A DNA stretch of 45,934 nt from an uncultured Lachnobacterium sp. (GCA_900548765.1 URLU01000001.1:1-45934), one strand, 5' to 3'; positions 41,952 through 44,195 are shown, numbered from the stretch's first letter. A program made the numbers and translations. The notes: generated from the sequence alone by a model not told the origin.

Positions 41952-42806
41952 TTAAAACACAATTCCCGTAAATTCAATAATAATTCCCCAGATTAAACCC
42001 AGAGCGTATACAGAACCGATAATAGCTGCATTTTCCTTAACATGGCGGTTGAGCCTGCACAGAATCAGAAGACCCACACCAGAGTTAACCAGAAGACCAG
42101 CCATCATAGGACCGGCACCGATGATTCCGTCCAGATAAAGCTGAGTGATAACCACAGAAGAAGCACAGTTTGGAATAAGACCAATCAGAGCCGCAACAGC
42201 TTCACCAACAACAGGGAGGCTTGAAAATAATGATGCCAGATTGTCCTCGCCTATCATACCGATTACAAGGTTAAGGATAAGAGAGATAATGAAAATATAC
42301 ACAAATATTCTGAGGGTGTGCTTTAAGGCGGCAACAAATAGTCCATCCTTACAACTGCAGTGCTCCTCCTCACAGACCACCTCTATGTCCATATCCTCAT
42401 CCTTCCTGTGAAGGGTGAAATGATAGATGAACTCCACAATAAATCCGGAGATAACCGCAATAACCACCTTGGTGCCAAGGATTTTTACAATAGTAGAAGC
42501 TGGCACAGCTTCTGATAAGAAAATAGGAAGCATCTCATCAGATGTGGACAAAAATATTGCAATCAGGGTTCCTACAGTAATTACGCGGCCGGCATAAAGG
42601 CTGGAAGCGGCAGCAGAAAAGCCGCACTGGGGAATCACACCCAGTAAACCGCCCCAGATAGGACCGGTCTTGCCGGCTGAGCTTATCTTTTTTTGCAGGG
42701 ATTGACCGGTATGGTGCTCCAGAGCCTCCATGGCCAGGTAGGTCAGGAATAAAAATGGTAGTAATTTTACGCTGTCTAATATGGTATCCAATAAAATGTC
42801 GAGCAT
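41952..42806 (-). CDS. Putative divalent-metal permease ('putative manganese transporter'/ArsP-like)
   Basis: LLPFLFLTYL.ME..EH, GVIPQCGFS, STSDE, central H/C/E-rich loop (CEEEHCSC), GLIPNCASS. Confidence 0.8.
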   Translation of the reverse strand: MLDILLDTILDSVKLLPFLFLTYLAMEALEHHTGQSLQKKISSAGKTGPIWGGLLGVIPQCGFSAAASSLYAGRVITVGTLIAIFLSTSDEMLPIFLSEAVPASTIVKILGTKVVIAVISGFIVEFIYHFTLHRKDEDMDIEVVCEEEHCSCKDGLFVAALKHTLRIFVYIFIISLILNLVIGMIGEDNLASLFSSLPVVGEAVAALIGLIPNCASSVVITQLYLDGIIGAGPMMAGLLVNSGVGLLILCRLNRHVKENAAIIGSVYALGLIWGIIIEFTGIVF

Positions 42807-42835
42807 AGGGTCTCCTTATATAATTCATAATTTAT

Positions 42836-42873
42836 AATTGCAATTTGATTGCATTTGCAAATCATTTGCAAAT
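42836..42873. promoter_or_regulatory. Tandem palindromic operator, likely for the cognate Fur-family regulator
   Basis: Perfect 10-1-10 ATTTGCAAAT-C-ATTTGCAAAT (42853-42873) and imperfect AATTGCAATT-T-GATTGCATTT (42836-42856). Confidence 0.7.
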
Positions 42874-42876
42874 TGT

Positions 42877-42904
42877 ATTATACAAGATGAGTGGCGAATG
42901 TCAA
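42877..42904 (-). promoter_or_regulatory. sigma70 promoter of the permease-Fur operon
   Basis: Minus strand TTGACA-N16-TATAAT. Confidence 0.75.
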
Positions 42905-42911
42905 GACTGAA

Positions 42912-43540
42912 TTTTGTAGATACTGGCGGCGTCGGGGATTGGGCATGGGTATGGATTCCCTGCAGAGGTCAGCCTTCAATATTTCTTAACTCCCCAGTAA
43001 TGCTTCTGCGCACAAGAAAAACCTGGTCGTAAACCCTTGTTTTGCCAACACAATTTTTTGCCTTCTTCGATTAAAGCTGTTCTTCAAACGATTTGACAAG
43101 GGGCGCAAAGTGTCCGTCTCAGGTGTACAACAATTCAGGGGGCATTCGTGTTGGACTTAGAGCCTTAGCGAAGGAAGAGCTGGGGCACCGTAGTCACATG
43201 TTTGAAAGCAGTTTCTTCTCTGCGCGGACGCGCATAAAAGAAACTGCTTGAGTTGTGCGCAGGTGCCCCTAATCGGCACTTCTTGAGCAAGGCTCTTAGT
43301 CCAGCTAGAATGGTCAGCTGGTTGTACACCTGAGACGGACACTTTGCGCCCCTTGTCAAATGCGTTGAAGTACACCTTATTGAAGGCAAAAAATTGTGTT
43401 GGCAAAAGCTACGGCTTTACTTTAAGGTTTTTCTTGTGCGCAGAAGCATTACTGGGGAGTCATAAGCTAGCTAAAAAGGCTGACCTCTGCAGGAAATCCA
43501 TACCCATGCCCAATCCCCGACACCACCAGTATCAGCAAAA
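42912..43540. repeat. ~630-nt non-coding fold-back (giant interrupted inverted repeat)
   Basis: Paired blocks 42919-42976/43476-43533 (55 of 58), 42989-43024/43425-43460 (36/36), 43040-43065/43382-43407 (26/26), 43091-43131/43321-43361 (41/41), 43152-43166/43289-43303 (14/15), 43182-43189/43262-43269, 43206-43217/43238-43249; apex TGCGC-GGAC-GCGCA at 43221-43234. Confidence 0.97.
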
Positions 43541-43569
43541 AAAATCCGCGAACCTGACATTCGCGGATT
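43537..43569 (-). terminator. Intrinsic terminator of the 43593-44195 gene
   Basis: AATCCGCGAA-N7-TTCGCGGATT with A8 on + (U-tract on minus). Confidence 0.8.
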
Positions 43570-43592
43570 AGTTATATAACAAAGTATGCAGT

Positions 43593-44195
43593 TTATTCCT
43601 CTGTGCCCTCAGTCCACTTCCGGAACTTCTCGACAACAGCATCATATGTTCTCTGGCTGATATCAGGAAGCTTGTCACCCCAAGCCGCAGTAGCCTGGTC
43701 AAATCCCTTTTTGAAAGCATTCAGGAGCTCCTCAGCCTTAGAAGAATCTCCGCCAGACAGAGCCTTCGCAAAATCCAGGATTCTGTCAGAGGTCTGCTCA
43801 ACACCCCAGTAGCCATCATCAGCGATGTCCTTCTGTGCCTGAAGGATAGTGTCCTGATCAACAGTCATATTCTCAAATACGCTTTTGAGGTTAGTGGCCT
43901 TTGCAAAAGTGAAAGCCTGATCTCCAATAGATTTTCTTACAATCTCTAAAAGCTGATTCTGTCTAGCCTCGGCATCAGCCTTAAGCTGTGCGACAATTGC
44001 TGAATTGCTCTTAGTTTTTGAAGAAGACTTTGTGTCTGTGTCTGATGACTTCTCATATACAGCAGCCTTGTCTGAAAAAGAAGCCTTATCAGATGACTTG
44101 CTCTCTGAAGTCTTGTCAGAAGCCTTTGCAGTTTTAGCAGTGGCTGTTGAAGTTGTGCCGACTGCAGAAGTTACATTGTAAATATCAATACCCAT
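43593..44195 (-). CDS. Hypothetical protein under a sigma28 promoter (S/T/K-rich N-terminus, helical C-terminal domain)
   Basis: AAGGAGG RBS; C-terminal DDGYWGVEQTSDRILDFAKALSGGD...LPDISQRTYD. Confidence 0.8.
   Translation of the reverse strand: MGIDIYNVTSAVGTTSTATAKTAKASDKTSESKSSDKASFSDKAAVYEKSSDTDTKSSSKTKSNSAIVAQLKADAEARQNQLLEIVRKSIGDQAFTFAKATNLKSVFENMTVDQDTILQAQKDIADDGYWGVEQTSDRILDFAKALSGGDSSKAEELLNAFKKGFDQATAAWGDKLPDISQRTYDAVVEKFRKWTEGTEE

Follow-up and report, generated by a model that had tools for sequence, protein, structure and literature searches.

A 629-nt fold-back in an uncultured Lachnobacterium sp. belongs to a multi-copy, probably long-lived family of giant hairpins

Long, near-spacerless palindromes are expected to be unstable in bacteria, and REPINs are about 100 nt in size and occur in many near-identical copies. 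Invertons, the invertible promoters of gut bacteria that Jiang et al. reportedly described in 2019, are said to carry short repeats and to have a dedicated invertase nearby. REP and REPIN sequences (Bertels and Rainey 2011, PMC3116915) are palindromic repeats outside genes that fold into hairpins and are inherited vertically at orthologous positions. TwoAYGGAY (RF01731) is multi-copy and has an elongated basal stem in its Bacillota copies, according to a preprint (10.64898/2026.09.22.753630), and it is tabled as a probable RNA that is not cis-regulatory by Weinberg et al. 2010 (PMC2864571). Here we analyzed a stretch of 45,934 nt from an uncultured Lachnobacterium sp. (GCA_900548765.1 URLU01000001.1:1-45934), referred to below as the window. 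It contains a fold-back that belongs to an undescribed, multi-copy and probably old family of giant hairpins, which we call family A. The portions of the literature that could be consulted on Lachnospiraceae palindromic MITEs, on long palindromes with gene conversion and on Firmicutes REPINs held no description of the element.

An inverted-repeat search of the window resolved positions 42912-43540 as an imperfect palindrome made of nested helices (Table 1). A preliminary description of the window, made from its sequence alone, had this region folding back around a 4-nt apex at 43226-43229; five nested inverted pairs centered on a GGAC loop bear this out, and the helix lengths given there were approximately right. 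The element is 78.6% identical to its own reverse complement over 654 columns. Its RNA minimum free energy is -429.2 kcal/mol on the + strand and -432.6 kcal/mol on the - strand, near equal and far below the values of shuffled sequences (-194.7 +/- 5.8 and -188.1 +/- 6.8 kcal/mol; z of -40 and -36; 0 of 20 shuffles as good). The window copy thus folds alike on both strands. The consensus fold of family A is a single unbranched rod with 0 branch points, whose apex loop reads GGAC, GGT or AGA depending on the copy. Each end of the conserved unit has a version of its own, left-type or right-type, and local alignments find both versions again in the paralogs. The left outer arm resembles no other locus beyond a short terminal motif that it has in common with the C119/L026 locus, and it is absent from the strain contig L020. 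The absence of a credible ORF, also stated at the outset, holds: the ORFs inside the element encode 52-82 aa, and a conserved small ORF was ruled out since 1-nt indels between copies break any common frame.

Table 1. Coordinates of the palindrome, its parts and flanking signals in the window, and of further family A copies on contigs of the same genome (prefix C)
Feature	Position	Strand	Details
Whole quasi-palindrome, locus 1 of family A	42912..43540	.	629 nt; sister-species ortholog (L059) with the same boundaries
Inverted pair 1	42912-42976 / 43476-43540		65 nt, 92%
Inverted pair 2	42989-43036 / 43413-43460		48 nt, 90%
Inverted pair 3	43040-43065 / 43382-43407		26 nt, 100%
Inverted pair 4	43074-43131 / 43321-43378		58 nt, 91%
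Inverted pair 5	43206-43226 / 43229-43249		21 nt, 90%
Left outer arm	42912..43007	.	Fast-evolving, locus-specific; partner 43440-43540
Right outer arm	43440..43540	.	Pairs with the left outer arm
Conserved unit	43008..43439	.	About 430 nt; common to all loci; ends in arm-specific (asymmetric) versions
Central module	43150..43305	.	Most conserved part; models R1 and R2; internal loops AGTCACATGT / GAGTTGTGCGCAG, TAATC bulge, apex hairpin
Apex tetraloop GGAC	43226..43229	.	Closed by GCGC/GCGC; loop differs between loci, stem invariant
Fast-changing compensated helix, left strand	43090..43131	.	Pairs with 43321-43362; longest perfect inverted stretch of the window copy, 41 bp; at C192 its two strands lack complementarity
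Sigma-70-like consensus promoter (TTGACA-16-TATAAT) of the ArsP_2/FUR operon	42877..42904	-	Flank, outside the element; 8 nt from the palindrome; kept in L059
Intrinsic terminator of gene 43593-44195(-)	43543..43569	-	Flank, outside the element; 3 nt from the palindrome; kept in L059
Family A copy	C144:3404-4038		635 nt; itself palindromic
Family A copy	C103:5010-5622		613 nt; itself palindromic
Family A copy	C192:3701-4067		367 nt; itself palindromic
Family A copy, degraded	C119		Outer-arm palindrome of 346 nt left; 365 nt of core gone; core retained in L026 and in sister-species L011
Family A copy, degraded	C88		67-nt remnant where L009 has the full arm

The genes flanking the element encode FUR, an ArsP_2 exporter, a 200-aa protein of unknown kind and a GHMP kinase. 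As first noted, no transposase lies nearby; no transposase or recombinase gene was found within about 3 kb. Two features of these flanks are recorded here in their own right. A 21-nt palindrome (95%; 42853-42873, within 42838-42873) built of repeated TTGCAAAT-like words separates the consensus promoter from the ArsP_2/FUR operon and is probably the operator of the FUR-family regulator; same-genus relatives have palindromes of 40-64 nt in this position. The 200-aa protein (43593-44195, - strand) is rich in Ser, Lys and Asp and has no Pfam match, and its gene is not adjacent to the ArsP_2 operon in any of 12 same-genus relatives examined.

Blastn of the element, combined with palindrome comparisons, recovered four intact and two degraded family A copies, at no fewer than six loci, in the genome of origin (G000), whose assembly is fragmented into 276 contigs (2.26 Mb, 79% complete). 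The arm copy number search proposed in the preliminary description hence returned a multi-copy sequence, present in this genome, in other strains and in a sister species. Full-length members measure about 600-725 nt, with arms of about 100-190 nt beyond the core. Blastn matches between paralogs are limited to query positions 142-483 (79-84% identity), the outer arms being unmatched between loci; the paralogous cores of this genome are 77-88% identical, and no near-identical copies were found among them. A 21-base core pattern retrieved 7 loci in two MAG records and 13 in metagenome contigs. Because the flanks of all 20 match contigs of our genome at 82-99%, they represent the same six loci in other strains and in the sister species. 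Some of these contigs (L007-L013) come from MAG records titled Senegalimassilia sp. or Bacteroidaceae bacterium and have flanks 82-92% identical to our contigs; either the record titles fit poorly or the contigs are mis-binned.

The window palindrome was reproduced at 98-99% in two independent metagenome assemblies (L014 and L018) and is therefore not an artefact of one assembly. Short-read assemblers can make fold-back chimeras, and the assembly is fragmented; nevertheless, we regard an assembly artefact or a decaying local inverted duplication as extremely improbable, given that the palindrome sits inside a 45.9-kb contig with unique flanks, that a sister species has an ortholog with identical boundaries and that paralogs have the same asymmetric loops. 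Within family A, neither the asymmetric internal loops nor a 5-nt bulge varies, and both can be recognized in its more distant relatives (G293 and G144, below). Their recurrence agrees with the original remark that divergence between the arms is clustered, other than in a decaying inverted duplication.

The wider distribution was followed with two covariance models, R1 for the central 155 positions and R2, a widened version. R1 found the four intact copies in the genome of origin, family copies scoring 170-184 bits, and matched 2 of 100 other genomes of the genus (G308 and G293). G308 carries four full copies (L055, L057-L059), which share flanks with our contigs, and one cut at a contig end. 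The single copy of G293 scores 105 bits and follows a tRNA gene; the corresponding site is empty in our genome and has diverged flanks. Among other genera of the family, 1 of 150 genomes (G144) matched, with two loci at 51 and 42 bits for R1 and 86 and 84 bits for R2; these are rods of ~270 nt with a common center and locus-specific stems. A second genome of that genus gave no family A match, and neither did R1 in any of 150 genomes of the order sample. As these scans used strict filters and scored 20-30 candidates per genome, all genus, family and order counts are lower bounds. Blastn matched the core neither in 36 same-genus and 24 same-order genomes nor in 200 further genera of the family; it was the covariance model that yielded copies, in a larger genus sample. 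A first, strict apex pattern had no match in the genome-contig collection, and family A had none in the plasmid, phage and viral collections. Against Rfam 15, the region 42700-43700 gave nothing at E <= 1 but a chance match of 17.5 bits to rpsL_pseudo at 42802-42920, almost wholly to the left of the element with a 9-nt overlap, and the paralogs gave no match. The Rfam search suggested earlier was thus negative, and the claim of an undescribed fold-back far larger than REP doublets now extends to a repeated family without ORF or Rfam match.

Family A persists at the same chromosomal sites across species. The window ortholog of G308 (L059) begins and ends at exactly the positions of the window copy, between the same promoter and terminator; it is 77-95% identical to the window copy in 40-nt bins over the central ~440 nt and 55-67% over the outermost ~80 nt on each side, with 55-70% for the left outer arm. 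In comparisons based on one sister species and on contigs from one further record (L007 and L008), the core is 89-92% identical between species and the outer arms 69-83%; seven comparisons across five segments of flanking genes gave 62-79% for third codon positions and 91-99% for first and second ones. The core changes much more slowly than third codon positions, which argues for purifying selection, and the core therefore looks selected. In the outer arms, change is as fast as the neutral rate or faster, and yet they are still complementary.

Inside the conserved unit, helices change in a compensated way. In A1, an alignment of this unit (12 sequences with 78% mean column identity, against 91% in A2, which covers the central module), 66 of 147 predicted pairs show a compensatory change, so that the covariation test on homologs called for in the preliminary description finds helices that keep pairing through double changes. 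When G293 and G144 are included (A4), the paired fraction of cells is 94.2%, versus 84.4% in shuffles. Both sides have changed in 25 of 54 pairs of A4; shuffles average 12.0, none of 500 reaching 25, and slid partners give 3-8. With complementary arms and a conserved core across species, the idea of a maintained palindrome stands.

Two loci deserve separate mention. The C192 locus (C192:3701-4067; L013, L021-L023) is a family A copy without outer arms, and both versions of one of its helix segments are about 95% conserved between species, versus 61.5% at nearby third codon positions. Between L011 and L026 (G000:C119:4560-5040), identity reaches 97-99% over the entire element and into the right flank, compared with about 91% for the flanks, which suggests a recent recombination tract across species.

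How the arms stay complementary can be read from the changes themselves. Most changes at paired positions between orthologs are double ones that preserve the pair: from C103 to L012, the outer arms show 24 double changes and 9 single breaks, the core 7 and 3. Between the window copy and L059, the outer arm has indels of 4, 2, 4 and 3 nt, and yet the outer 40 nt of L059 are complementary at 40 of 40 positions, so these indels are mirrored in both arms. Isolated helix mismatches comprise 50 G.T, 31 A.C and 75 others, in copies that are not independent, and the union of pair sets has 59 G-U cells on the + strand versus 41 on the - strand (26 versus 15 columns). The stems of family A have no G-U wobble bias. 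RNAalifold on A1 favors the + strand by 32 kcal/mol; for the G144 copies, + is favored by 9-17 kcal/mol with equal G-U counts.

The near-neutral rate, the mirrored changes and the lack of a wobble preference together suggest arm-to-arm copying at the DNA level; selection on an RNA stem would fit these three facts less well. One arm would be copied from the other, by template switching on the hairpin or by recombination between arms. Besides the mirrored substitutions and multi-base indels, we infer this from frequent deletions, arm conversions and apparent segment flips. With arms that drift and remain complementary, it is apparently as DNA that the palindrome is maintained. Copying of this kind can by itself make the arms of a palindrome covary, with no selection on structure. 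The absence of SbcCD, considered as a reason why the palindrome is tolerated, is neither supported nor contradicted by an SbcD-like frame that scores 58 bits, below the curated cut-off of 77.65.

Deletion, conversion and inversion variants between strains fit such DNA-level copying. The left outer arm missing from L020 and the right one missing from contigs of three RNA-library runs are among them. At C119, the core was lost between 3-nt repeats (CAA at the junction). One helix segment of C192 occurs in three states, non-complementary (X/Y') in our genome, swapped (Y/X') in the contig L013 and, by conversion, Y/Y' in L021. At three loci, the element or part of it stands in opposite orientations relative to its flanks in different short-read assemblies (L024 and L007/L012 versus C103; L016 versus L019 versus C144; L059 versus the window). 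Since perfect inverted stretches in the copies reach 26-58 bp and all the data are short-read assemblies, these flips are uncertain and could be assembly ambiguity.

For the outer arms themselves, we favor common descent. Orthologous outer arms are still alignable (z of about 6.7), C1 and C119 share a terminal motif and total lengths are similar across loci, all of which points to descent from a unit of ~650-700 nt, with arms that have since diverged beyond recognition. At the neutral rate, paralogous outer arms should indeed be saturated, as the relative rate of the core predicts. The arms of C144 and C119 end in mirrored intrinsic terminators that belong to the convergent genes on either side. 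These prompted the alternative that outer arms are captured local flank DNA, which we rate as less likely than common ancestry with fast drift.

The same terminators bear on a possible action in cis on the neighboring genes, as a bidirectional terminator or insulator, as a REP-like stabilizer of mRNA 3' ends or as an invertible switch that flips the asymmetric core and a weak promoter. All loci are intergenic (three convergent, two tandem, one open), the window copy lies exactly between a terminator and a consensus promoter, orientations differ at the three loci above and a -10-like TAGAAT is kept in the right arm. However, a terminator or stabilizer needs no 150-430 nt of conserved sequence with conserved loops, and the genes next to family A loci have nothing in common. 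A switch is countered by the lack of a recombinase gene within about 3 kb and by the ambiguity of the flips. The best internal promoter-like site scores 9 of 12, with a poor -35 in other copies, and no conserved promoter was found across family A copies. A conserved TTGACA was ruled out as a -35, no -10 lying at 16-18 nt in any copy. Taken together, a role in cis appears to us rather improbable.

The preliminary description proposed a non-autonomous mobile fold-back. Family A has dispersed at some time, having reached at least six loci and, in G293, a tRNA site; it is not demonstrably mobile now, as the divergence of the paralogous cores and the lack of near-identical copies indicate. No target-site duplication had been seen, and no direct repeat was found at the ends of the element. 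The proposed search for empty sites returned no clean one. C119 was ruled out as an empty target site, because conserved element sequence remains on both sides and the locus is thus an internal deletion; in the 12 same-genus relatives, no empty site is readable because upstream synteny is not conserved. As for a linked transposase or HUH nuclease, the sole Y1_Tnp gene of the genome (PF01797, C250:8-283; 106.5 / 105.4 bits) adjoins another palindromic family, family C, and not family A; its contig, with one gene flank, has no similarity to family A. An autonomous element with the same ends was not found in this genome, 79% complete, where blastn gives other non-coding copies only.

A selfish non-autonomous fold-back transposon of MITE, REPIN or PATE-like kind would be mobilized in trans on single-stranded DNA, for example by a Y1 (HUH) transposase, would have no host function and would keep its core for recognition by the enzyme. 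A multi-copy, strictly intergenic sequence in varied contexts and with a patchy spread across taxa is what one would expect of it, as are the G293 copy behind a tRNA gene, at a site without a copy in our genome, and the presence of one Y1_Tnp gene in a genome crowded with palindromic families. We nevertheless consider this unlikely. Besides the position of the Y1_Tnp gene, the divergence of the paralogous cores and the want of target duplications and clean empty sites, no related sequence occurs in plasmids, phages or viral contigs. Moreover, orthologs at 4-5 loci keep their core at 89-92% versus 62-79% at synonymous sites, which is unexpected in an element that has stayed in place since the species separated, unless the host selects it.

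Runs containing the stretch are pig-gut and other gut metagenomes, and some are RNA libraries. Contigs of two of these (X15 and X16) cover 43129-43387, one 948-nt contig of X15 joining the core to gene 43593-44195, and contigs of X17 and X18 cover that gene and end at the edge of the element. Positions 42724-43128 are uncovered in 4 of 4 RNA-library runs, a gap that is uninformative because assembly breaks at palindromes, and 43379/43388-43537 is missing from contigs of three runs from three studies (X15, X17 and X18). The contigs over the core hint at transcription, being strandless, without transcript ends and possibly derived from DNA.

The other early proposal, a large rod-shaped noncoding RNA, is no more than possible; the stems lack a wobble signature and the RNA-library contigs are strandless. 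In its strongest form, family A would be a new class of large rod-shaped structured RNA with a core of at least 155 nt and a stem of up to about 350 bp. Its gene would be a self-repairing DNA palindrome in which arm copying keeps the stem perfect despite free sequence drift and arm recombination flips the core, so that transcription from the neighborhood would give the sense or the antisense core, as an on/off switch. We consider this scenario unlikely.

The reading we prefer, with about as much confidence as doubt, is that family A is a long-lived, host-retained hairpin of the TwoAYGGAY type, with a selected structured core, a stem kept by hairpin-templated copying and a core that acts as a folded single strand. 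The selected structured core would cap a basal stem of great length whose sequence is free to change. Against this reading stand the lack of a wobble bias and of a conserved promoter, a patchy distribution like that of mobile DNA, and the possibility that arm copying alone makes the helices covary. Least certain is what the element does: the core may work in folded, single-stranded form, most probably as an RNA that comes from read-through of the neighboring gene or from some promoter; its conserved loops may be recognized by a trans-acting protein; the long stem may give stability or a processing site; and the element may no longer be actively transposing.

From a biological perspective, palindromes of 600-725 nt persist here at the same chromosomal sites across species, despite their expected instability. 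Two forces can be told apart, selection on the central module and DNA-level copying that would keep near-neutral arms complementary, which makes family A a natural system for the study of hairpin-templated repair and cautions against taking covariation in palindromic loci as proof of RNA structure. The R1 and R2 models provide a handle for finding further members. Family A is also a second, larger family beside the unexplained TwoAYGGAY type, and a factor or function that explains one may explain both.

Self-comparison of the genome returned 36 mirror palindromes, and not all belong to family A. TwoAYGGAY (family B) has 30 matches, 25 of them at 114-133 bits. Twelve aligned copies measure 236-326 nt and consist of a conserved core with variable, locus-specific, self-complementary arms. 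Individual copies (for example G000:C68:1663-1829, C161:1609-1774 and C8:25467-25632; L027, L028 and L033) have the core at the tip of the stem, and TwoAYGGAY stems have no G-U bias for the Rfam strand (9 versus 16). The model has 19 matches in G308 and 36 in G293, and none in G204, which is without family A, in G144 or in G447. RF01731 itself matches neither the region 42700-43700 at E <= 1 nor L002-L004 at E <= 0.1 (cut-off 43 bits). Family C, a third palindromic repeat, has at least 25 copies of ~200 nt without Rfam match (C123:30-248, C22:11419-11637, C53:4972-5222 and C250:~490-700, among others); the Y1 gene (G000:C250:2-406, - strand) lies directly beside one of them, a REPIN/RAYT-like arrangement in a Bacillota-type gut genome. 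A fourth, small family has two copies that are 75% identical over 91 nt (G000:C40:6737-6901 and C31:6641-6802).

Compared with described systems, family A falls outside every Rfam family and outside the testable defining features of REPINs, MITEs and invertons. Like REP/REPIN sequences with their RAYT, it consists of extragenic hairpin-forming palindromes kept at orthologous sites, but it differs in size (600-725 nt), in number (four intact copies) and in its cores, which are 12-23% diverged. In the REPIN/RAYT arrangement, the Y1 gene is flanked by the same repeat, whereas here it stands beside family C. With MITEs and fold-back transposons, it shares a non-coding, dispersed body without its own transposase and inverted repeats, which here make up the whole body; however, neither a target-site duplication nor a genomic parent IS with the same ends was found for it, it has no young copies, and its ends are its least conserved part, whereas a MITE keeps its ends. 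Like an inverton, family A is a segment bounded by inverted repeats, and it may occur in both orientations among strains, if the short-read assemblies are right; unlike in an inverton, the repeats are the whole arms and no recombinase is nearby.

TwoAYGGAY comes nearer. It is multi-copy, intergenic and patchy in its taxonomic spread, and it is built alike: an elongated basal stem, locus-specific and self-complementary, ends in a conserved structured core. The two co-occur in all three family A-bearing genomes of the genus, with 30, 19 and 36 TwoAYGGAY matches, whereas G144 has family A-like copies without TwoAYGGAY. Family A forms one long rod with internal loops instead of two AYGGAY-loop hairpins, is 2-3 times longer (613-725 versus 236-326 nt) and has fewer copies (about 6 versus 30). 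With these differences, TwoAYGGAY is the closest known thing to family A.
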